A DNA stretch of 64,000 nucleotides from positions 1,056,001 to 1,120,000 of the forward strand of contig CAVTTL010000001.1 in the NCBI GenBank assembly GCA_963737635.1. The letters are read 5' to 3'. This stretch comes from an uncultured Methanoregulaceae archaeon. Lineage in GTDB: Archaea > Halobacteriota > Methanomicrobia > Methanomicrobiales > Methanospirillaceae. Shown piece after piece: positions 1,318-12,161 of the stretch. The number at the start of each line of letters is the position of its first letter. Position 1 is the stretch's first letter. Both the position numbers and the translations under genes were made by a program. The notes beneath the pieces were generated by a model. That model made no database searches. It was not told where the DNA came from and saw only the letters and a program-made list of their open reading frames with translations.

Positions 1318-2242
1318 ATGTCTCAGGATCGCCAGCTCCAGCTGGTCACCAGTGTGATGATATCGGCGGGATTCGAAGTATCCGAGAAGTTTACCCTTCG
1401 TCCGAGAAGTTTCGATCTCATCGCACGCAACAACGGGACACTGCTTGTGATCAAAGTCGTGACGCATATCGACTCGGTGAGCGAAGAAGCGGCGTTCGAT
1501 CTTGATGTGATCTCACATCATCTGGGTGGGGTGCCTCTTATTGTTGGTGAACGTGCCCGGGAGGCTGAGCTCGAACGGGGTGCGGTGTACGTTCGGTACG
1601 GCATCTATGCGATCAGCGTCTCGACTCTGTACGATTATTTTGTCGAGAAGATCCCCCCGCTCGTGTACGCGTCTCCCGGCGGTCTGTACGTGAATATCAA
1701 CGGTGACGCCCTGCGGGAGCTCCGTGAGGGGCAGCGTATGTCGCTTGGCGATCTGGGGCAGGTGCTTGGGGTGTCCCGGCGCACGATCAGCAAGTACGAG
1801 GGCGGGATGGGCACGACGCTTGAAGTTGCTATCCGGATCGAGGAGTATTTCAATACTGGTGTGGTCGAGTCCATCGATATTGTCCGCCGCGAACCTGCCG
1901 AATCCGGGCATGAGGAGCCAAAGAGACGACAGGGCCCGGGTATTCCTATCGAATTCTTTGAGCAGGCTCGGGATGCAGCTTCACACGCTCCGGGGCGCAC
2001 CGTTCCAGGCTCTCCTCACGTTCGACAAGCATACCATCCTTACGGGTTACGGCCCGGCGCAGAAAGTGGTCAAACGTGCCGCTCTTATCAGCAACCTCTC
2101 GAAGATCGCAAAGAAGCACGCGATGTGTATTATCACCGACTACCATCACGAAAAGAAGATCGGCCGGACGCTCGTGATCGGTGAGGAACGCCTCCACGAT
2201 ATCGCAGATGGTTTCGAACTCCTCGATATGTTGGGCGACTGA
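1318..2242 (+). CDS. Archaeal HTH transcriptional regulator (COG1395-like), split by a frameshift near 1963
   Basis: FDLIAR..LLVIKV N-terminal domain, Cro-type HTH (SLGDLGQVLGVSRRTISKYE); C-terminus continues in the frame of ORF 1703..2242. Confidence 0.85.
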
Positions 2243-2323
2243 TTTTTTTTAAGTCTAGTATACATTTTCAGATTTGCTGATCTCGCGTGTTCATCATCGC
2301 AGCAGTGCGATAAAAAAAGAAGA

Positions 2324-2929
2324 TTATGCTTTTTTCATGAATTTGGGGGAATTTGCAAGAAATGTTAACGCTTTCTCTTTGTGGACGTATGCGGGGTACC
2401 ATACGGTAAAGACGATAGCGATTACCATAAAGACCCATTTGAGATTGTCCAGAAATACAAGGCCGAGATCAGGTCGTAACACGAGAAAGCCGTCAATTGC
2501 AGCGCCGAGGGTAAAGGCAAGTGCCCATACCGCGGTTATGATATAATTTACCCGCATGAAGAGGGGGCTTTTCGCTCGTTCGGGATCAACCCCCTCTCGT
2601 GAATACTGGAGGGTGAAAGGGAAATGGAAAAGGATGGTAGCCCAGCAGACTACGGCGATTACCAGCATAGAAAGTGCCGCGAGGTATTTTGCGAGATAGT
2701 ACTGATGCAATCCAATGATCGGGATAAAGAACGCGACGAAAAACACGAGCGTTACCACGGCCAGGATATATCCTTTGAGCAGTTGCCGGTAACTGAGAAC
2801 AATAGTGAGCGCAATGGCGACAATAAAAGCAAGGGTCAGACTCATCAGGGGATTTCCAAGCGGAGCTTCAGCAATAAGTGCAAAGGCAATCCACGGAATG
2901 AACGCGGTAAAAAGCGATATCAGGTTCAT
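2324..2929 (-). CDS. Hypothetical integral membrane protein
   Basis: 201-aa ORF, about 6 hydrophobic segments, PFTLQYSRE motif. Confidence 0.75.
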   Translation of the reverse strand: MNLISLFTAFIPWIAFALIAEAPLGNPLMSLTLAFIVAIALTIVLSYRQLLKGYILAVVTLVFFVAFFIPIIGLHQYYLAKYLAALSMLVIAVVCWATILFHFPFTLQYSREGVDPERAKSPLFMRVNYIITAVWALAFTLGAAIDGFLVLRPDLGLVFLDNLKWVFMVIAIVFTVWYPAYVHKEKALTFLANSPKFMKKA

Positions 2930-3030
2930 GCCATACAGATAGAATTCGCGGATGGATAACTCTTTTGAAGTGTTTTTTCCCTTCTATTGGGAAATGAGCA
3001 GATTAAACGATTTTGGGAGAAAGTGTATAG

Positions 3031-3047
3031 CTAATCGTGACAGTGCC
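3031..3047 (-). repeat. Orphan IS6-type terminal inverted repeat remnant
   Basis: Reverse complement reads GGCACTGTCACGATTAG; IS6-family ends such as IS26 begin GGCACTGT; no partner end seen. Confidence 0.45.
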
Positions 3048-3125
3048 TGATTAATAGAGATGATAAAAATGGGATCGGTAGCATTCCTCAGTACGAGATC
3101 AGGATGAAGATCAAACCTTAATTAA

Positions 3126-3812
3126 GCCGGACGTTACTTCAACAACCCTGAAATAACGCCCATCCTTCATGAGTTAGTTACCCTATCCGCATTACCCGTC
3201 GCTGAAATGGAAACGGATTTCGCAATAGATTCCACAGGATTCAGGACAACAACTTTCAGCGAATACTGCGGGATGAAACACGGACAGAAGAAACAGCACA
3301 AATGGATCAAGGCGCATATGGCAACCGGTGTAAAGACCAACATCGTAACCGAAATTGTGATAACTGCCGATAATGTCCATGACACTAAACCATTCAGGAC
3401 ACTTCTGAACGGGACAGCAAAGAACTTCGATATCAAGGAGATATCAGCAGACAAAGCATACTCATCACGCGATAACCTCGCCGCAGTAAAAGAAATCGGC
3501 GCAAATGCTTACATCCCTTTCCTGAAAACTGCTACCGGTAAATCACACGGATCACCGCTTTGGAACAAGATGTACCACTACTTCAAAATGAACCAAGAAG
3601 AGTTCATGGAACACTACCATAAGAGGAGCAACATAGAAGCAACCAACGCGGCGATTAAAAGGAAGTTCGGAGAGACTTTGAAATCAAAGAACTCCGTTGC
3701 TCAGGTAAATGAATTGCTTGCGAAGATCATCGCTTACAATCTAACGGTAGTAATCCACGAGATGTACGAGAATGGAATCTCACCGGACTTCTTACAAATA
3801 AAAAGATCTTAG
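3126..3812 (+). pseudogene. 5'-truncated IS4/IS5-like DDE transposase
   Basis: Frame open from 3126 after in-frame TAA; catalytic motifs FAIDSTGF, SADKAYSS and YHKRSNIEATN; N-terminal region missing. Confidence 0.85.
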
Positions 3813-3818
3813 TAATTT

Positions 3819-4292
3819 TTACTTGTGGTTATATTTCGATAAATTTTCTTTTAATTCCGGATTTCCCCGAATTATAAGATTGTAAAGTGTTGTCCAATAT
3901 TCTAGTTTCACTTCACTTCGACCAAACATATTCATTTTAACAAATTGTGATCCTTTTAAGGAAACATTCGCCATAATTTCTTCGTAAGTTATCGGATCAA
4001 TGTGTATATTTTCTGTAATTCGTTCAATATCTGCAAAATAATCCGATTTTTGCTTTGTCCACTCTCCTGCACCCTCCAACTTCGCAGTGCTCGTAACTTT
4101 AAAAATAGATTTAATAGCCCCATGAGGTTTTGTGTAATAAAATAAAATTAAATCGTTTGGCTCTACGGTTTTACGGACACTCCATCCAGAATGTTTTTTA
4201 GCACTATCCAACTCCTTACGACGATCCTCATGTGCACCGCGTTTATCAATACCAACCGACATGATCCATATCTTTGACATATTTCGCTCCAT
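3819..4292 (-). CDS. EVE (PUA-like) domain protein
   Basis: KIWIMSV..WSVRKTVEPNDLILFYYTKPHGAIKSIFKVTS..DPITYEEI pattern typical of EVE domains; AT-rich. Confidence 0.7.
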   Translation of the reverse strand: MERNMSKIWIMSVGIDKRGAHEDRRKELDSAKKHSGWSVRKTVEPNDLILFYYTKPHGAIKSIFKVTSTAKLEGAGEWTKQKSDYFADIERITENIHIDPITYEEIMANVSLKGSQFVKMNMFGRSEVKLEYWTTLYNLIIRGNPELKENLSKYNHK

Positions 4293-4337
4293 GTGAAATA
4301 TATCGCAATCGTTTTAATAATTGTTCGGATTTTGATC

Positions 4338-4397
4338 TCTGCACCTAAAGTCCGGTGTCTGCACCTAAAGTAGGGTCAAAAAGTGACTTTGGGTGCA
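4338..4397. repeat. Subterminal repeats of element A
   Basis: TCTGCACCTAAAGT at 4338-4351 and 4358-4371 (20-bp period); inverted ACTTTGGGTGCA at 4386-4397 (11/12 match). Confidence 0.85.
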
Positions 4398-4404
4398 AAG
4401 CCCC

Positions 4405-4412
4405 CCTCTAGA
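4405..4412. repeat. 8-bp target site duplication, left copy (CCTCTAGA)
   Basis: Identical to 9643-9650 and directly flanks the inverted repeat. Confidence 0.85.
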
Positions 4413-4473
4413 GGTTCTGGTGCGTCTGCGGTTGATCCACCGCGCTCGCGGTTGGTGGTGCGTGGCGGTTGGT
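4413..4473 (+). repeat. Left terminal inverted repeat and internal TGGTGCGT-N2/3-CGGTTG repeats
   Basis: Motif at 4418-4434 and 4456-4471, with an extra GCGGTTG at 4448-4454. Confidence 0.8.
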
Positions 4474-4486
4474 AGGAACGCAGAGA

Positions 4487-5608
4487 TTAGAAACCATCAA
4501 AGAATTGACTTTTTCTAAATCCGATGACACATCCATCTGGATATGTTCCATAGCGGCTGGTTCGATTGGATACTATTATCCGATTGCTATCTTCTAAAAT
4601 CTTTAAACTTCTTGACCACATTTGAGGGAATGGGGTATGCTCAATACAAAATTCTTTTAATTGGGTTGTTGTTAGGGATCTTCCTATCAAAGATTTGTAA
4701 ATAAATTCTGCCTCATCCTCAAATTTTGAATCCTCACAATAAGATACCAAGAAACTTTGACCGGCATCTGTTATATCGGAAAAACTAAAAGTTCCTCTCG
4801 GATCAACTTTGAGCATTGCTCTTTTCATATACGACAATCCATCAATGTGATTTGAGGCAAAAAATAGATGATAGGAGACATTATTCATTTTGTCAACCAT
4901 TTCAAAGGATTTGACATATTTTGAAGCTGTTTTGAGTTGCATATGGTATAATTCAATTATTTTTGATAGGCGTTCATTGGGGTTTCTAAGTGGTCTAATG
5001 TTTCGCCATTCCGATGTTCCAAACAATCCATCAAATGTTTCCTCTCTTGGATCGTCCTTAGCTTGGATAAAACGATTAATTCCATTATAAGCGAAATTAA
5101 TGAATACCTCACAGCTTCGGAATGCGAGAATTCTTTCGATTATGTAAAATGGCAATCCACTATATCCAAAAGGATCAATAAACGCAAATGTAGGAGCTGA
5201 GCTTTTACTCTCTTTATCGAGAGCCGCCAACAAAGCTTTCATTGCAGTTTCAAAATCCGCATGATATACATCCACCTTAACATTTTTTGGCAAATCTGGG
5301 AATCGCTTTTTTATTGTCCTTTCTAATATTTCCGCCCTTGTTGCGTCTTGTTCAATAAAAATAAAAACAAATTCTGTAGATCCATTGCATAATTCATGCG
5401 AATGCCCTAAAAGACATCTCAGTGCAACTAATGGTGAGCCATCCTCCCCATTTTCATATTTACCGGGACCGGCAAAACCATCGATATAAACAAGTCTTTT
5501 GTTATGAGCTTTTGATAAAATAGGATACCACGCTTTCAGGTATTCTTCTAAAATTCTATGTTTTGCCTCAGTATGTGGTTCTTTTATCCAAACGGCGGAT
5601 TCCGGCAT
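4487..5608 (-). CDS. tcmP: Three-Cys-motif partner (TcmP-family) SAM-binding methyltransferase-like protein
   Basis: PHTEAKHRILEEYLKAW, YIDGFAGPGKY, FAFIDPFGY, YHLFFASNHIDGLSYMKRAM signatures; start placed at ATG 5608. Confidence 0.85.
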   Translation of the reverse strand: MPESAVWIKEPHTEAKHRILEEYLKAWYPILSKAHNKRLVYIDGFAGPGKYENGEDGSPLVALRCLLGHSHELCNGSTEFVFIFIEQDATRAEILERTIKKRFPDLPKNVKVDVYHADFETAMKALLAALDKESKSSAPTFAFIDPFGYSGLPFYIIERILAFRSCEVFINFAYNGINRFIQAKDDPREETFDGLFGTSEWRNIRPLRNPNERLSKIIELYHMQLKTASKYVKSFEMVDKMNNVSYHLFFASNHIDGLSYMKRAMLKVDPRGTFSFSDITDAGQSFLVSYCEDSKFEDEAEFIYKSLIGRSLTTTQLKEFCIEHTPFPQMWSRSLKILEDSNRIIVSNRTSRYGTYPDGCVIGFRKSQFFDGF

Positions 5609-5624
5609 TATTATTTTATAAATT

Positions 5625-6413
5625 TCAATAGGATAATAAGTCTTTCTTGATGTAATGCGACTTTCCATATTTTTTTAACTTTGCCGTAACTTTAATCCTA
5701 AAATCTCGCCAATCAATGGTTTTTGCTTGGGCGTTATAATTTAATTTTCCCACTTTGTAAAAATCTACAAAATCTTTTGTTAAGTCGATCAATTTGAGAG
5801 TTTGCTCAGGTATCCAAACGGGTTCCAGTGATACATATGTCGGGATACCCATATCATGCGCTTTTTTCAAAGCCTCAATCCTTTCATTTGTTGGTGCTGC
5901 TCCACCCTCAATTTCCTTTCTGTATTCTTCATCTGTAAAAACTAACGTAGCACCATATTCACTTAATTCGGGGCTTTTCGACAGTAAATCAAAATCCCTT
6001 TCTGATCGTTTTCCGCCTTTGGTCAATATTGAAACTTTTAATTTATGTTGGTGTAATATCTGGATCGCTTGCCTACTGAGTTGTTGCTTAACATCCAGTG
6101 GTTGATATGGGTCTGTGGTGAAAGATAACAAAATCGTACGTTTTTCGCCAATGCTCTCTAAATAAGCAGCATCATCATAGAATTTATTAATAACTCCCGT
6201 TCTGGGAGTTGGTTTGTAAAAATTCTCTTTTGTCATATACAGGGTTGCAGGGGCGTAACAATACGAGCAACGGTGACTGCACCCCCGGTAAAGGTTTGCT
6301 GCTAATTCACAATATTCACGCGCTTTCCCTCGCGGTTCGTATATTATTGATGTTTTTAGCCGGTTTTCTTCTTTCGAAACCAACTGGCAGCTTTGCATTT
6401 TTATTCTCACCAA
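5625..6413 (-). CDS. Radical SAM protein (spore photoproduct lyase-like)
   Basis: NLYRGCSHRCSYCYAP (CxxxCxxC), SFTTDPYQP, ILTKG, YVSLEP; exact start uncertain (6398-6413). Confidence 0.9.
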   Translation of the reverse strand: MVRIKMQSCQLVSKEENRLKTSIIYEPRGKAREYCELAANLYRGCSHRCSYCYAPATLYMTKENFYKPTPRTGVINKFYDDAAYLESIGEKRTILLSFTTDPYQPLDVKQQLSRQAIQILHQHKLKVSILTKGGKRSERDFDLLSKSPELSEYGATLVFTDEEYRKEIEGGAAPTNERIEALKKAHDMGIPTYVSLEPVWIPEQTLKLIDLTKDFVDFYKVGKLNYNAQAKTIDWRDFRIKVTAKLKKYGKSHYIKKDLLSY

Positions 6414-6479
6414 TTAAAAAATCTATATGGATATGATACTATATTGATCTTCCGGTGCATGGGGTGAAAGTGTAAAAAG

Positions 6480-6704
6480 TCACTCGGTTTTAAGAGTGTT
6501 GTTTTTCGTTTCTTTTTCCTTTCGTGTTGTCCAAGCTTTCTTTGCGATTTCACTTCTTCTTTGTTGTTTTGTTTCTATCCATAACTTGATTGCTTCATGC
6601 AATGCGATTGAAAGGTTTCCCCGTTTCATTCCCAACTCTTTAGCAACCTCCGTTCTGAATTCATTTTCAAGGTCATCTGGAAGAATAACGTCAATTCTGC
6701 CCAT
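6480..6704 (-). CDS. Ribbon-helix-helix (CopG-like) regulator
   Basis: MGRIDVILPDDLENEFR..KRGNLSIALHEAIKLWI; basic tail RRSEIAKKAWTTRK. Confidence 0.8.
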   Translation of the reverse strand: MGRIDVILPDDLENEFRTEVAKELGMKRGNLSIALHEAIKLWIETKQQRRSEIAKKAWTTRKEKETKNNTLKTE

Positions 6705-6736
6705 AGGTTTTCACAAATAGTATAATGTCTCTCTCC

Positions 6737-6806
6737 GTTTATACACTTTTCCCCTTAACCACAATGGATAAATACTTTAACCACATATGTGGTTATGTGT
6801 ATAAAC
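6737..6806. promoter_or_regulatory. Divergent promoter/operator between RHH and transposase genes
   Basis: Perfect 18-bp palindrome TAACCACATATGTGGTTA (6778-6795), half-site TTAACCACA (6755-6763), outer inverted pair GTTTATACAC / GTGTATAAAC. Confidence 0.7.
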
Positions 6807-6830
6807 CCGTCTGTGTGTTTAACCAATGAG

Positions 6831-8024
6831 ATGATGAAAATGATACGGCAACTTACCAACCCACGAGAATTAAAAGCACTGGCAATGCTCAGCGAACCCG
6901 ATACCGTACTCCAGACTGGCAAAGACGAGTGGGATGTTAGATCGCAGTCGAAAAACGCGTATTATCAGGTTGCCCGAAGTTACAAAGATCGGAATGCTCG
7001 TATGCGAGGACAGGCAACATGGACATGTTCATGTCCTGATTTCCAGACTCGCAACGTCATATGCAAACATCAGCACGCCGTGATGCTTTCCTTAAAGATT
7101 GCCGGTGATGTTCAAGAACAGAGTGCTCCAGCCGCCATTGCTGAGGCAGAACCAAAGATTACCTGCCCTTCATGCAAGAGCGAAAATATTAAGAAATGGG
7201 GAATCCGGAAGACCCGATATGGCACTACTCAGCGGTACGCGTGCCACGAATGCAATCATACTTTTGTCGTTGACAAGGGGTTTTGCCGGATGAAACATTC
7301 CCCTGAATCAATCACACTTACCCTGGATCTCTACTTCAAAGGATTGTCGGATCGGAAGATTGTGGATCACCTTAAACAATTCCACAATGTTACCGTCGTT
7401 CACACTACAGTTATTCGATGGATTCACAAATACCTGAAACTCCTGTCAACCTACGCTGAGAAGTATAAAGTCGATGCCGGGAATATCTGGCATTGCGATG
7501 AAACAACCGTTTTTATCAAGAAAGAAGGTGAAAAGAAGCACTATCAGTGGATATGGAATTTGATGGACGCAAAGACCCGCTATCTTCTGGCATGTCAGGT
7601 TACTGAGCACCGGTTCGTAAAGGATGCCCGAAAGCCCCTGAGCAAGGCAAAAGCGATGGCAAAGAATATACCGGATGCGATTGTGACGGATGGCCTACAA
7701 GCATACCGAGATGCAATTAAGGCTGAGTACTATGGGCTAGGGCGCATCCAGAACCCACACATCAGACTGAAGGACTTTGAAACCAAGCCGAACAACAACA
7801 TTCTCGAACGGTTAAACGGCACGTTCCGAGAGCGCACAAAGGTAATGCGGAGCCTTGATAGCGCAATCGGTGCCGGAGAGTTTGCCGCTGGTATGCAGAC
7901 GTATTACAACTATATCCGACCTCACATGGGGATCGACGGAATGACGCCGGCACAGATGGCAAATATCCCGATTAATCTGATGGGGAACCGATGGGAAACT
8001 ATGATTGGGCTGGCGGTAAAATAG
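6831..8024 (+). CDS. IS6/IS240-like DDE transposase with N-terminal SWIM finger and Zn ribbon
   Basis: SWIM WTCSCPDF..CKH; CPSC..QRYACHEC; HTH; DDE triad WHCDET / IVTDG / NNILERLNGTFRER; frame intact. Confidence 0.92.
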   Translation: MMKMIRQLTNPRELKALAMLSEPDTVLQTGKDEWDVRSQSKNAYYQVARSYKDRNARMRGQATWTCSCPDFQTRNVICKHQHAVMLSLKIAGDVQEQSAPAAIAEAEPKITCPSCKSENIKKWGIRKTRYGTTQRYACHECNHTFVVDKGFCRMKHSPESITLTLDLYFKGLSDRKIVDHLKQFHNVTVVHTTVIRWIHKYLKLLSTYAEKYKVDAGNIWHCDETTVFIKKEGEKKHYQWIWNLMDAKTRYLLACQVTEHRFVKDARKPLSKAKAMAKNIPDAIVTDGLQAYRDAIKAEYYGLGRIQNPHIRLKDFETKPNNNILERLNGTFRERTKVMRSLDSAIGAGEFAAGMQTYYNYIRPHMGIDGMTPAQMANIPINLMGNRWETMIGLAVK

Positions 8025-8031
8025 AATATTA

Positions 8032-8517
8032 TCAATCTGTTTTTTGTTGGGATTTGAGTTTGTCCTTCACATATGCAAGTTCAATTAAATCGAGCATATC
8101 TCCCCGATCAGAGCTCAAAATAGGGAACGTTGAATATACTAACTGAATGAAGCGGTTCCAATCATATTGCTTTGTACTGTTAATCACAAAATCCAACATA
8201 TTTTTTTCGTCTATCGGTATATTAATTGGATAGTTTTCGTTGGACAGTTTAATCAGTGTTTTTTTATGACCAAAAGAATTTTGAGTGTTTTCGATTTCGA
8301 AAATGGATGGGTTATCTTTTGCACAATTATAAATATCCCATACAAACGGCCCAAAATTATTAAATTCCCATTGGATACCAGTGATTTGTTTTTTATTTTT
8401 TAGGGCAAATTTCCAATCGGCAAGATACACAAGTTTTGTTAGACGCGCATTGGACAATTCAGATTTGTGGGGGTAATTTTTAAGAAGATAAACCAATACA
8501 TCAACCAATTTGCTCAT
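8032..8517 (-). CDS. Panacea/SocA (DUF4065) antitoxin-domain protein
   Basis: RLTKLVYLADWKF..ITGIQWEFNNFGPFVWDIY..FIQLVYST signature. Confidence 0.85.
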   Translation of the reverse strand: MSKLVDVLVYLLKNYPHKSELSNARLTKLVYLADWKFALKNKKQITGIQWEFNNFGPFVWDIYNCAKDNPSIFEIENTQNSFGHKKTLIKLSNENYPINIPIDEKNMLDFVINSTKQYDWNRFIQLVYSTFPILSSDRGDMLDLIELAYVKDKLKSQQKTD

Positions 8518-9536
8518 TATACATCCTGTTCTAAGTTCTCTTCTTCAGATTCCCAATTCTCACCTAAATATGGATTAGGGAGCTCTAACCTTAAAATTAT
8601 TTCCTTACATATATTAATCTGTTCGGAGTCCCTGAATAAGCCTTCTAATTCTCTTTTTGTGAAACGGGTGTTTTTCGTAGACTCTACAATAAATATTGCC
8701 TTTGGGTGGTGGTTTTCTCCTATCCTATAACCATAAATTAGTGGGGGTTTCATTGAAAATAACTCAGCCACTTCACGAGGAATATGCTCTAAAGTCTCTA
8801 ATGCAGTATAATATTCCTCTAAGGCTCGAATGGGATCTGGGTAAATTTTAAAGTATTCACCATCATTCCAAGCATGGCTTATTGCTCCCTGATCTGGGGG
8901 GTACTGATGTCTACGTACTGCATTATAGATAGGATTCGCTGAATATCGAGCGATAGGAAAGAATCCCGCTTCATCAAATACGTATAAGCTTATACGATCT
9001 GTTTTGTGAGTTGCGCCACCAAAATCGAGAATGCAATCTCCAATGTACCTATTTAGAAATTCAACAATTTCTTTGATGGTGTCCTGATGGAGTTCATCTT
9101 CTCCAGTAAGTCCATCAACCTGATCTTTTAAGTCTTGGTTTTCCTTTATTACATCCTTAAGTCTTTTTTTGTGCTTGTATGACAACCATACAATTGCAAG
9201 AGATAATACGATTAGAATAATGCCGCCAATTGCAATTTCAATATTAAAAACCGATGAAGTTGCCTTTGTAATGTCTGCCTTTGAGATATCTCTTATTAAG
9301 TCATAAAATATCGAGGAGAATACCGAGAAATAGATTCCGGTAATCGACGAAACTATTAGGACGGGTATTTCAGAATAATCCGTGAGCCATTCTTCGATTA
9401 TTTTGATGTATTTCCAAACCATTTTTGAGGTTGTCCATATTTTTAAATTATATCGCAAATCTGAGTAGCTGTTGGGAATATAAAAAGAAAATGTATTGAA
9501 ATCGGTTTCATATTGTATTAAAACACAATCGGTCAT
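8517..9536 (-). CDS. Two-TM membrane protein with coiled coil and C-terminal GAF-like domain
   Basis: Two hydrophobic helices, then DRISLYVFD..FPIARYS..YPPDQGAISHAW; stop overlaps start of the Panacea gene; true start may be 9422. Confidence 0.65.
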   Translation of the reverse strand: MTDCVLIQYETDFNTFSFYIPNSYSDLRYNLKIWTTSKMVWKYIKIIEEWLTDYSEIPVLIVSSITGIYFSVFSSIFYDLIRDISKADITKATSSVFNIEIAIGGIILIVLSLAIVWLSYKHKKRLKDVIKENQDLKDQVDGLTGEDELHQDTIKEIVEFLNRYIGDCILDFGGATHKTDRISLYVFDEAGFFPIARYSANPIYNAVRRHQYPPDQGAISHAWNDGEYFKIYPDPIRALEEYYTALETLEHIPREVAELFSMKPPLIYGYRIGENHHPKAIFIVESTKNTRFTKRELEGLFRDSEQINICKEIILRLELPNPYLGENWESEEENLEQDV

Positions 9537-9580
9537 TCATAGCACCATCAAAAAAGTGCATTGTTGCCTTGATCGCGCGA

Positions 9581-9642
9581 AACCAACCGCGATGCACCAG
9601 TACAGGTGAAATGCACCAAACAACCGACAACGCACCAGCACC
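9581..9642 (-). repeat. Right terminal inverted repeat and internal repeats of element B
   Basis: rc reads GGTGCTGGTGCGTTGTCGGTTG..TGGTGCAT..TGGTGCATCGCGGTTGG. Confidence 0.8.
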
Positions 9643-9650
9643 CCTCTAGA
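9643..9650. repeat. 8-bp target site duplication, right copy (CCTCTAGA)
   Basis: Identical to 4405-4412. Confidence 0.85.
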
Positions 9651-9664
9651 GAACCATTATATAG
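9650..9664 (+). promoter_or_regulatory. Putative BRE/TATA of the thermosome gene
   Basis: AGAACCA-TTATATAG ending 40 nt before ATG 9704; GGTGA SD-like motif before the start. Confidence 0.6.
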
Positions 9665-9703
9665 AACCACAAACCAATTTTAGTGCTAAAAGTGGTGAAT
9701 TTT

Positions 9704-11359
9704 ATGTCGCAACAACTTGGAGGACAACCAATTCTTATTCTTAAGGAAGGTACCAACCGTACCCGAGGCCGTGACGCCCAGGGTATGAACATCACCGCTG
9801 CAATGGCTGTTGCCAGTGCAGTAAGGACCACGCTCGGCCCCAAGGGTATGGACAAGATGCTTGTCGATACCATCGGCGATGTCGTGATTACGAATGATGG
9901 TGTCACCATCCTCAAGGAAATGGACATCGAGCACCCGGCCGCAAAGATGATGGTCGAGGTCGCAAAGACCCAGGATGACGAGGTCGGCGACGGAACTACC
10001 ACTGCAGTCGTTATCGGTGGGGAACTCTTAAAGAAGGCCGAGGCACTCCTTGAACAGGACGTACACCCGACGGTTATCGCCCACGGCTACCGTATGGCGG
10101 CTGAGAAGGCGCAGGCGCTGCTCAAAGACATCGCGTTCGATGTCAAGTCCACCGACAAGGCACTCTTAAAGAACATCGCCGGCACCGCAATGACCGGCAA
10201 GGGCGCTGAGGCAAGCAAGGACAAGCTCTGTGACCTCGTGGTCAGGGCCGTCACCATGGTGACTGATGCTGACGGGACTGTCGATATCGACAACATCAAG
10301 GTCGAGAAGAAGACCGGCGGCAGCATCGAGGACTCCGAGATTGTTGAAGGAGTTCTCATCGACAAGGAGCGCGTGCACCCGTCAATGCCAAAGAAGGTCA
10401 CCAACGCAAAGATCCTTCTTCTCAACGCAGCGGTCGAGTTCAAGAAGACCGAAGTCGACGCTGAGATCAATATAACCCACCCCGAGCAGTTACAGGCATT
10501 CCTCGACGAAGAGGAGCGCATGGTCAAGAATATTGTCGAAAAGATTGTCAAAAGCGGTGCAAACGTCCTCTTCTGCCAGAAGGGTATCGACGACATCGCA
10601 CAGCACTACCTTGCAAAGGCCGGTATCTTCGCCGTCCGCCGTGTCAAGAAGAGCGACATGGAGAAGCTTGCCCGGGCAACCGGTGGCAGCCTCGTTTCAA
10701 GCATTGATGCGATCGGCAAGGAAGAACTCGGTCATGCCGGTGTTATCGAAGAGCGCAAGGTCTCCGGAGAGGAGATGACCTTTGTCGAGCAGTGCAAGAA
10801 CCCGAAATCGGTCTCCATCATTGTCAAGGGCGGCACTGAGCATGTTGTCGACGAGCTCGAGCGCGCCATCCACGACGCACTCCGCGTTGTCGGCGTCGTT
10901 GTTGAGGACAAGAAGGTCGTCGCCGGCGGCGGTGCACCCGAGACCGAGCTCTCGCTCCGGCTCCGCGAGTACGCGGCAACGGTCGGTGGCAAGGAACAGC
11001 TCGCCATCGAGGCATTTGCAGTCGCGCTCGAGATCATCCCGCGAACCCTTGCAGAGAACGCAGGTCTCGATCCCATTGACATGCTGGTAGAGATCCGCTC
11101 AACCCATGAGAAGGGCAAGAAGAACTACGGTCTCAATGTCTTCGAAGGAAAAGCAGTCGATATGAAGGCAGCCGGTGTTGTTGAGCCCCTCCGTGTCAAG
11201 ACCCAGGCAATCTCCTCAGCTGCAGAAGCCGCGATCATGATCCTCCGCATTGACGACGTGATCGCCTCTTCCAAGTCCCCCTCTCCGGCACCCGGTGCCG
11301 GTGGCATGCCGCCTGGAATGGGTGGCATGGGCGGAATGGGTGGCATGGGCGACTACTAA
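9704..11359 (+). CDS. thsA: Thermosome (group II chaperonin) subunit
   Basis: [19 protein letters not shown]-terminal GGM repeats. Confidence 0.97.
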
Positions 11360-11600: not shown

Positions 11601-12161
11601 TTAATATGAGGCTGAGTTGGGGTTTGCCTGGACGATGATGGTTCCCGTGATGTTTGATTTATCCAATTGGTAAACAATTGTACCTGTCTGTTGTACGGTG
11701 AATGTATAGGTGAACCCCCCGGTCGGGACAATTGCACCGGAATTGAACACGCCACTGTAATTCCCGATCGTCATGATCGAGTGAGAGACGTTGTCATTGT
11801 TCACAAAGGTGATGCCGGTGCCGGGAAGGACACTGTCTACCAGGGGAGTGAAACCGGTGCTGGTGATGTGGACGGTGGTTACTTCGGATGCCGAAGTGGG
11901 TGTAGCCGCGGTTGCCACAGTAGTTACTACGGCAGTGACATTTGCTGCCGGTGCCGTCGTTACATTAGCAACCATCGTCACGTTGGTGACCGGTACCGTG
12001 GTTGCCACCGTAGTTGGAACAGAAGTGGCGACCGTGGTAACTACGGTAGTTGGGGCAGGTGTTTGCGTTGTAGTCTGTACTGAAGACGATGCGGGCTGAG
12101 TGCACCCGGTGACAGCCACCAGTGCAACAAGAAGGATAATAAATCCCATGAGCAGTTTCAT
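11601..12161 (-). CDS. Secreted lipoprotein with Thr-rich linker and cupredoxin-like domain
   Basis: Lipobox VTGC, T/V-rich stalk, FTP..GTGITFVNND..HSI..FNSGAI..FTYTF. Confidence 0.75.
   Translation of the reverse strand: MKLLMGFIILLVALVAVTGCTQPASSSVQTTTQTPAPTTVVTTVATSVPTTVATTVPVTNVTMVANVTTAPAANVTAVVTTVATAATPTSASEVTTVHITSTGFTPLVDSVLPGTGITFVNNDNVSHSIMTIGNYSGVFNSGAIVPTGGFTYTFTVQQTGTIVYQLDKSNITGTIIVQANPNSASY

Follow-up and report, generated by a model that had tools for sequence, protein, structure and literature searches.

In the passages of the family review drawn on here, insertion sequences (ISs) of the IS6 family are described as transposing replicatively with formation of a cointegrate, and their hallmarks are terminal inverted repeats (TIRs) that start with GG and contain a cTGTt motif, together with an 8-bp target-site duplication (PMC7986276). 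The same passages give lengths of 0.7–0.9 kb, rising to 1.76 kb in clades h and i, and report a single passenger-carrying member, ISDsp3, with one passenger gene, gene movement being otherwise the work of IS pairs (PMC7986276). According to a 2019 survey of archaeal integrated elements, in the parts consulted, no passenger-carrying DNA transposon had until then been found in archaea (PMC6563490). Here, we analyzed a 64,000-nt stretch of DNA from an uncultured Methanoregulaceae archaeon (the window, in which position 1 is the first nucleotide; positions given with the prefix C1 are those of the host genome), and in particular a 5,230-bp element at window positions 4413–9642. It holds six intact open reading frames (ORFs), a transposase gene and five others, with passengers and transposase enclosed by one TIR pair and no flanking IS copies. 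We take this single-copy element, with a probability of roughly 0.85, to be a structurally complete representative of a family of unit transposons derived from IS6 (passenger-carrying ISs, or tISs) that insert selectively at promoters. An initial annotation of this DNA had proposed a non-composite unit transposon with a SWIM-domain IS6-like transposase, defence-type cargo and subterminal repeats; that proposal is borne out and extends to a whole family.

The feature that the initial annotation lacked is also the main one: insertion is site-selective, at nucleotide precision relative to an archaeal TATA box. The element ends 14 nt upstream of the TATA box of a thermosome (group II chaperonin) gene, and its relatives follow the same rule. 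We collected 44 related loci from species-representative genomes and scanned the 30 that had a near-full-length transposase homologue for a GGTTCTG... repeat pair (match of at least 15/20) combined with a perfect 8-bp duplication. Exactly one such pair, of 2.6–11 kb, was present at 21 of the 30 loci and none at the remaining nine, at least three of which lie at or near a contig end. The same scan delimited 25 of 79 metagenome loci; for the 54 without a solution, most of which are short whole contigs, we guess that contig ends are the reason. The unit-transposon class therefore generalises, in that homologous transposases elsewhere also lie inside distant pairs of TIRs with 8-bp duplications. 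In the genome set, 15 of 23 elements (19 of 23 at 5/7) have a TATA box (TTATATA, at least 6/7 matching) at a distance of exactly 6 nt from the duplication, on one side of it, compared with 0.19% (2.0% at 5/7) for 200,000 random genome sites and 374,115 locus-flank positions. Because the motif was defined post hoc on the genome set, the metagenome loci, which were fetched later, are the real test; in this held-out set the rule applies to 20 of 25 elements at 6/7 and to 23 of 25 at 5/7. Of the two misses, one lies within an array and the other at the end of a contig. Across both sets, the TATA box is at exactly 6 nt in 35 of 48 elements.

When the target sites are aligned, a nAAnnT-TTATATA consensus appears at a fixed register, with a six-base spacer that resembles the TFB-recognition element (BRE), and the duplicated 8 bp have no consensus of their own. 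Counted from the first T of the TATA box, these 8 bp occupy positions −14 to −7. They adjoin the BRE position on its upstream side, so that insertion leaves the promoter intact. The transposase gene faces either way relative to the target (10 versus 9), and distant members of the family (41–56% identity) retain the +6 TATA rule. The rule is not seen when all loose family-end matches in the host genome are taken together, which we attribute to the looseness of the pattern, to the many chance matches and to the second end of each element, which faces away from the promoter.

The promoters used are overwhelmingly those of chaperone or heat-shock genes, namely two thermosome paralogues, Hsp20 and a ClpB-like gene, plus a winged helix-turn-helix (wHTH) regulator. 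In the genome set, the thermosome gene is downstream of the element in the studied window and at L013, L014, L015, L019, L023 and L036, the second thermosome paralogue at L020 and L022, Hsp20 at L024, L025 and L029, and a two-wHTH ArsR-type regulator at L026 and L027. A small CDC48_N-like ORF followed by the ClpB-like gene (Clp_N and AAA_2 domains) is downstream at L034, L040 and L041 and of the host's fourth element (C1:2385539-2388757). Further downstream genes in this set are a DUF1451 Zn-ribbon gene and an intron-bearing tRNA gene (L032, 7244–7400, minus strand; Rfam, 54 bits; no ARAGORN call), whose 157-nt span presumably reflects a long intron. In the metagenome set, blastx places the thermosome gene downstream at L086, L089, L102, L104, L106, L110 and L136; L092 is assigned to it by promoter sequence identity only, and L096, which has a short flank, probably has the same target. 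Two more metagenome elements precede the second thermosome paralogue, one precedes Hsp20 and four precede the regulator.

In Pyrococcus, thermosome, Hsp20 and AAA+ chaperone genes belong to the heat-shock response, and several are repressed by the palindrome-binding regulator Phr, according to the portion of the source consulted (PMC10746257). Promoters of the Hsp20, ClpB and wHTH-regulator types in our sets share ACTAAC-N5-GGTTA(A) about 8–9 nt after the TATA box (L024–L029, L034, L040, L041, L113, L121, L125, L126 and, in the host genome, C1:2388788). From its sequence and position, this motif is a candidate heat-shock operator, presumably similar to the Phr operator, and the regulator gene would then be auto-regulated. 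A scan of the host genome found only one promoter-type site with the motif, so a regulon cannot be defined in this host.

The delimitation of the studied element itself rests on several features that are exceptional in combination. Perfect 8-bp duplications and 22-bp inverted ends that agree at 18 of 22 positions (GGTTCTGGTGCGTCTGCGGTTG versus GGTGCTGGTGCGTTGTCGGTTG) are present as initially claimed; the direct repeat can also be read as 10–11 bp (CCCCTCTAGAG), a boundary ambiguity of 1–2 nt. The inverted repeat by itself is unexceptional, ranking second among 177 regional pairs with a longer chance pair present, but the combination of TIR, duplication and end motif is not. The 17-nt pattern TGGTGCRTNNNCGGTTG has two matches in the window, compared with 0.01 expected, and TGGTGC(G/A)T..CGGTTG occurs four times in the 2.46-Mb genome, always within the two ends of the element; the further copies noted near the ends in the initial annotation amount to one full copy per end. 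Genome-wide, 512 + 512 loose IS6-like end matches yield just two pairs that are no more than 20 kb apart and have a perfect 8-bp duplication; a SWIM-IS6 transposase gene lies inside each (the studied element and C1:425105-429100). The interior of the element has a G+C content of 39%, against 51.6% for the genome.

Empty sites in related genomes show what was inserted. In 14 genomes of the same genus, the thermosome TATA box follows the stop codon of the conserved upstream gene by only about 16–22 nt. The site is occupied in the host and in three other genomes of the genus, in each case with a family end exactly 14 nt upstream of the TATA box, and in three other strain populations (X2, X4 and X11) contigs end in different family ends at this same −14 position, their loose ends being at 9657. 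For four family members (L014, L015, L086 and L136), both flanks with their copies of the duplication map onto an empty relative, overlapping by exactly 8 nt for L015, L086 and L136 and by 7 nt for L014; for L015 against the empty site L072, flank identities are 97% and 99% and the overlap is 12026–12033. The expectation that flanks would rejoin at a single 8-mer is thus realized in these four relatives, and it follows that the whole unit is the inserted segment.

The same 8 bp can be used repeatedly, and this reuse builds head-to-tail arrays in which the youngest element is nearest the TATA box. At seven loci, a right end and a left end stand 8 nt apart and share an 8-mer that also precedes the BRE, giving three copies, which is what a later arrival at the same 8 bp would leave. 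Elements that abut another family end make up 11 of the 23 in the genome set and at least 9 of the 25 in the metagenome set. In the window, about 7.4 kb (2242–9642) separates the stop codon of the upstream gene (2241) from the thermosome TATA box (9657); the studied element is nearest the TATA box, and older DNA (2242–4404) lies upstream of it (Table 1).

Table 1. Positions of the element, its target, the adjoining inserted DNA and the other family elements of the host. Positions are those of the window unless preceded by C1.
Feature	Position	Strand	Evidence or remark
Older inserted DNA at the same site	2242–4404	unstranded	relatives have ~20 nt here
Membrane-protein gene, 201 aa	2324–2929	−	oldest part of the insert
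Truncated SWIM-DDE_Tnp_1 element	3207–4402		its end abuts the studied element
EVE-domain gene	3819–4292		inside the truncated SWIM-DDE_Tnp_1 element
Left 8-bp target-site duplication, CCTCTAGA	4405–4412	unstranded	sequence reading
Left TIR, terminal transposase site, GGTTCTGGTGCGTCTGCGGTTG	4413–4434	+	sequence reading
Left subterminal repeat, TGGTGCGTGGCGGTTG	4456–4471	+	~38 nt inward of the terminal site
TcmP (three-Cys-motif partner protein), 393 aa, cargo	4487–5668	−	TIGR04474, 223 bits (cut-off 53)
Radical SAM protein with CxxxCxxC motif, cargo	5625–6413	−	PF04055, 3e-17
Small 74-aa protein, divergent from the transposase gene	6480–6704	−	weak RHH_6, E 0.0078, below cut-off
Transposase	6840–8024	+	SWIM (CxC..CxH), Zn ribbon, putative helix-turn-helix, IS6-type DDE
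SocA/Panacea-domain antitoxin-like protein, 161 aa, cargo	8032–8517	−	PF13274, 2.8e-16
339-aa protein, putative toxin/effector partner	8517–9536	−	stop codon overlaps the Panacea gene start
Right subterminal repeat, TGGTGCATCGCGGTTG (read on − strand)	9584–9599	−	repeat search
Right TIR	9621–9642	−	reverse complement is GGTGCTGGTGCGTTGTCGGTTG
Right 8-bp target-site duplication, CCTCTAGA	9643–9650	unstranded	sequence reading
Thermosome promoter	9651–9663	+	6-nt BRE-position spacer (gaacca) and TATA box TTATATA (9657–9663)
Thermosome (group II chaperonin) gene, driven by the targeted promoter	9704–11359	+	Cpn60_TCP1, 1e-195
Family element in host	C1:276830-279598		2,769 bp; duplication CGTGAATA
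Family element in host	C1:425105-429100		3,996 bp; ~50-nt perfect inverted repeats; duplication GACTAACG
Family element in host	C1:2385539-2388757		3,219 bp; one indel in the duplication

Could the boundaries be a coincidence, with an ordinary short IS6-like gene lying amid unrelated island genes between repeats that match by chance? The inverted repeat alone is no stronger than regional chance pairs, and the left flank is itself mobile DNA. However, no TIR adjoins the transposase gene, the end motif is confined to the element's two ends, the genome has just two pairs that combine TIR and duplication, and the same architecture recurs at 46 other loci, with clean empty sites. Chance boundaries are thus refuted by the genome-wide pair scan, by the recurrence in genome and metagenome loci and by the empty sites, and we give this explanation almost no weight. 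Improbable, too, is a model in which insertion is untargeted and only harmless sites upstream of strong, negatively regulated promoters survive selection. Such a model would accommodate the observations that the sampled insertions are all fixed and old and that insertion upstream of the BRE keeps the gene intact, and heat-shock promoters may lack upstream regulatory sites. Selection, though, cannot produce a precision of a single nucleotide (35 of 48 elements at exactly 6 nt, versus 0.19% at random) or arrays that reuse the very same 8 bp, and intergenic DNA offers many other neutral positions.

How a targeting transposase would find its address is a more evenly matched question. The type of end motif (CGGTTG or CGGGACTT) does not sort with the class of target, which suggests that the landmark would be read by a module separate from the one that binds the ends. 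Our best guess, which we hold only tentatively, is a tether to a protein–DNA complex at poised stress promoters, formed by TBP/TFB, by a repressor or by both. In its full form, which we regard as possible rather than probable, the N-terminal SWIM/Zn-ribbon region would dock on TBP/TFB, possibly together with the heat-shock repressor, the element would integrate at the upstream edge of the BRE, and cargo would accrue as a time-ordered array. The host genome has three TBP paralogues (C1:54538-55056, 1737374-1737892 and 2106445-2106966) and one TFB gene (C1:722033-722581). Movement itself would follow the IS6 route, by replicative copy-in through a cointegrate resolved by host recombination, and the cargo may protect the host against viruses or stabilise the element. 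Nearly as likely as the tether is direct read-out of promoter DNA (BRE/TATA, often with ACTAAC-N5-GGTTA) by the transposase, in the manner of TnsD at attTn7 and without a host protein. The consensus at its fixed register fits this view, as do about 17 sites with [AC]CTAAC 22–23 nt beyond the duplication, the in-gene element (L010) that lacks a TATA box but has ACTAAC in the same register, and the persistence of the +6 rule among members of 41–56% identity in other hosts, where a tether would need conservation across hosts. On the other hand, many equally good BRE/TATA sites are vacant, thermosome promoters lack ACTAAC, BRE/TATA is nearly all that the two promoter types have in common, insertion occurs in both orientations, and the specificity of end binding is independent of target class.

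Several observations weigh against the reading of the element as a complete member of a promoter-selective, IS6-derived family. None of the data capture an actual transposition event. The first 23 sites had already been viewed when the TATA motif and its offset were defined, leaving the metagenome set as the only true replication, and that set shares populations with the genome set (L109 = L024, L114 = L113), 2 of its 25 elements duplicating other loci. One host element (L010, C1:425105-429100) lies in a gene without a TATA box, at a point where ACTAAC stands at the same register as in promoter sites. In the host genome, 88 sites score at least 14 on the position weight matrix (PWM) of the target site, and only one of the top 45 is occupied, which indicates that BRE/TATA sequence alone does not explain promoter choice; this occupancy test is weak at four elements per genome, and more weight attaches to the recurrence of five promoter classes as targets in different genomes. 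The NCBIfam IS6 equivalog model NF033587 scores the transposase at 114.7 bits, below its cut-off of 125, although it is the best of 12 transposase models for this protein. Contigs from four sequencing runs include none that joins 4412 to 9651, that is, an empty allele of the exact site, and the reads likewise show no join across 4413–9650. Near-identical family copies at different sites are absent, identity across the transposase gene reaching 91% at most, and inheritance rather than independent insertion could account for several of the thermosome-site elements in related species. Finally, the defence function of the cargo is a prediction from family matches.

These last points bear on the mobility of this copy. 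The initial annotation called the element probably recent and mobile, which goes beyond the evidence: the copy is single, with no second one in the host genome, it has no empty allele among the contigs searched, and the closest elements at other sites are at most 91% identical. Four runs from four studies yielded contigs that contain the same insertion with 0–1 differences. At the thermosome gene no relative exceeds 89% identity, and the DNA to the left of the element is an older insert specific to the strain. Related elements do occur at different promoters (for example, L022 and L089, 83% over 3 kb), and the family has moved; our claim of movement goes no further than the family as a whole.

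The transposase combines an IS6-type catalytic domain with further modules. Its ORF is open from a GTG at 6789, and a start at the ATG at 6840 agrees with the paralogues. The claim of a SWIM-bearing IS6-like transposase holds, both Pfam models scoring above their cut-offs: DDE_Tnp_IS240 (PF13610) at 52.7 bits (cut-off 27, which all four host paralogues exceed) and SWIM (PF04434) at 26 bits (cut-off 19.6). The Zn ribbon is of the IS1/IS1595 type, and the region labeled helix-turn-helix (HTH) in the initial annotation is retained as a putative HTH given the helices in a structure model. An alignment of 26 transposases shows the four SWIM ligands (C63, C65, C75 and H77) and the Zn-ribbon cysteines unchanged in all 26; in the same alignment both catalytic D residues are invariant and E323 is nearly so (at least 90%), and by our own reading of the DE, TDG and ER motifs D, D and E are invariant across the four host paralogues. 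The AlphaFold2 model is poor (mean pLDDT 62), and Foldseek returned only weak DDE-fold matches to it, the best being ISCth4 (E 2.7e-4, TM 0.15); a PDB sequence search likewise gave marginal matches only.

In comparison with IS6 elements such as IS26 and IS240, the family is alike in its DDE domain, in having IS6 as its best NCBIfam match, in its ends (GGTTCTG(G/T/A)T..., mostly with a CTGTT motif) and in the 8-bp duplication, which is found in the studied element and 46 others. It differs in carrying 2–11 extra genes rather than being a compact single-gene IS, in its N-terminal SWIM domain, in having two sites per end and in its precise target position. Its elements measure 2.4–11 kb, well beyond the IS6 range given in the consulted passages (PMC7986276). 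Clade i transposases, described in those passages as 450 aa long with a Zn finger and an extra N-terminal domain (PMC7986276), may be relatives of this family, in which case members are perhaps already in ISfinder. A SWIM CxC..CxH finger in a DDE transposase also recalls the Mutator-like elements (MULEs) and IS256, to which the weak best PDB matches (ISCth4, of the IS256 family) belong. However, the finger is C-terminal in MULEs and N-terminal here, the catalytic domain is of the IS6 type, and the match to Pfam Transposase_mut is marginal.

Tn7 offers a closer parallel in behavior than in machinery. Like Tn7, the family has a low copy number, several transposase sites per end and insertion at a fixed distance from a recognised landmark that adjoins a conserved gene. 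Tn7 duplicates 5 bp of its target, whereas the duplication here is 8 bp; the family also differs in having a single IS6-type transposase and archaeal hosts, in using both orientations and in addressing promoters rather than the 3′ end of glmS. A cargo rich in defence systems is a further likeness, as described for Tn7-like elements in the consulted part of the literature (PMC8649781). Families of the TnsA/B/C/D/E type, or of RNA-guided target selectors, had no match among the six ORFs of the element and are absent from the 25 commonest Pfam families of 129 cargo ORFs surveyed across the genome set. With regard to target choice, functional analogies reach into eukaryotes. Ty3 integrates at Pol III start sites via TFIIIB, P elements insert at Drosophila hsp70 promoters, and TFB is the archaeal counterpart of TFIIB/Brf1. 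As in these systems, placement follows the transcription-initiation region and not the duplicated bases, with a preference for heat-shock or poised promoters. The family, in contrast, consists of archaeal DNA transposons of an unrelated transposase lineage, so the resemblance is functional only and the TBP/TFB contact hypothetical.

In the literature searched, which was covered mostly at the level of listings, neither this family nor any case of promoter-addressed insertion in archaea came up. Within that literature, nucleotide-precise insertion with respect to a TATA box would be the first case of promoter-addressed transposition reported for archaea, and the family shows that archaea have cargo-carrying DDE transposons. 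It gives direct experimental access to the reading of an archaeal promoter or initiation complex by a transposase, and serial insertion at one address is a concrete mechanism by which defence islands could form and grow. If docking on an initiation complex or repressor proves true, the family would be to prokaryotes what Ty3/TFIIIB or P-element/hsp70 targeting is to eukaryotes, with defence-island growth built in. Insertion of several kilobases at a predictable, harmless site beside a strong promoter could also become a genetic tool for methanogens.

The passengers of the studied element (Table 1) include defence-type genes on both sides of the transposase gene, as initially proposed, to the extent that family matches predict function. 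On the left, TcmP also matches the PADLOC candidate defence model PDC-M30A (1.2e-62), and with the adjoining radical SAM gene, whose likely start is the ATG at 6398, it has the composition of a PDC-M30 pair, which suggests a candidate defence role. On the right, the Panacea-domain gene adjoins the overlapping upstream gene for the 339-aa protein, the two forming a putative toxin–antitoxin pair. The 339-aa protein has no family match. We read a stretch at its N terminus as hydrophobic, Pfam gives it a weak ECF_trnsprt match below threshold (residues 52–125), and its language-model look-alikes have GAF domains, which serve as a lead only. An Rfam scan of window positions 2200–9800 found no RNA family.

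The older DNA upstream includes a remnant of a second transposase family in the same genome, in which a very similar N-terminal SWIM module is fused to a DDE_Tnp_1 domain (IS4/IS5-type; 411 aa). Full copies at C1:978781-982455 and C1:169806-173932 (L007, L008, L061 and L062) are 3.7 and 4.1 kb long, hold extra DNA and have ends with repeated TGCACGTAAAGT and 9-bp duplications. They show no clear TATA rule, so a targeting role cannot be argued from the shared SWIM module alone. One contig of run X4 lacks a 547-bp stretch (3792–4338) that holds the EVE-domain gene, joining 3791 to 4339, which marks an indel inside the truncated IS4/5-like element.

Across the family, elements range from 2,374 to 10,983 bp, and none of those delimited in genome or metagenome loci consists of a transposase gene only. 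The host has four PF13610 genes, all of the SWIM type and each inside a delimited element (5230, 3996, 2769 and 3219 bp); a first TIR scan missed the elements of two of these paralogues, and relaxed searches recovered both. The 3,996-bp element carries a DUF262/NsnA nuclease, a HEPN protein and a DUF2080 protein, and no other delimited element was found within a gene; the gene that it splits is one for a Thr-rich surface protein (L010 184–1137 and 5217–5474; genome C1:424184-429474). Relatives among the species-representative genome loci are labeled Methanoregula or Methanoregulaceae, and the family occurs in Methanoregulaceae and some other archaea. A protein search gave at least 356 homologue clusters at E ≤ 1e-10, named in their sources just "transposase-like" or "DDE-type integrase/transposase/recombinase". 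IMG/VR viral contigs contained no relative of the element, so no vehicle for cell-to-cell transfer was identified.

Cargo was surveyed in the 23 elements of the genome set, in which the 129 ORFs mentioned above are the non-transposase ORFs of at least 50 aa. It is variable, takes up 1–9 kb and is predicted to consist mostly of restriction-modification, toxin–antitoxin and other defence genes. Pfam tallies are 10 N6_N4 DNA methylases, 5 MazE/AbrB, 4 Panacea, 2 DUF2080 and 2 HD, with single matches to MvaI/BcnI, Bpu10I and BsaWI restriction enzymes, HNH, a type I S subunit, ParB_N, GmrSD_N, Fic, NYN, HEPN, nucleoside deoxyribosyltransferase and radical SAM; PADLOC type II methylase models matched up to 10 members. 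With transposases included, 84 of 153 ORFs have no relative in another element, and the transposase alone is common to all. A small ORF (52–97 aa) divergent from the transposase gene is present in 15 of 23 elements by our own reading.

Family ends begin with GGTTCTG and pair the terminal site with a second copy at a near-constant offset of 37–38 nt. A second copy (at least 9/12 matches) stands at the fixed offset in 32 of 46 ends, compared with 136 of 920 shuffles, and terminal and subterminal copies co-vary by subfamily (GTTGCGT..CGGGACTT, GATAAGT..CGGTTGAT and GTCAAGT..CGGGGGG), which is what two predicted binding sites of a co-evolving transposase would look like. Finally, the host genome also contains family-type end pairs only about 90 nt apart, at C1:1748113-1748204, 2153781-2153867 and 2230198-2230290, which have the look of miniature inverted-repeat transposable elements; at the first of these, TTATATG stands 6 nt beyond the flanking 8-mer.

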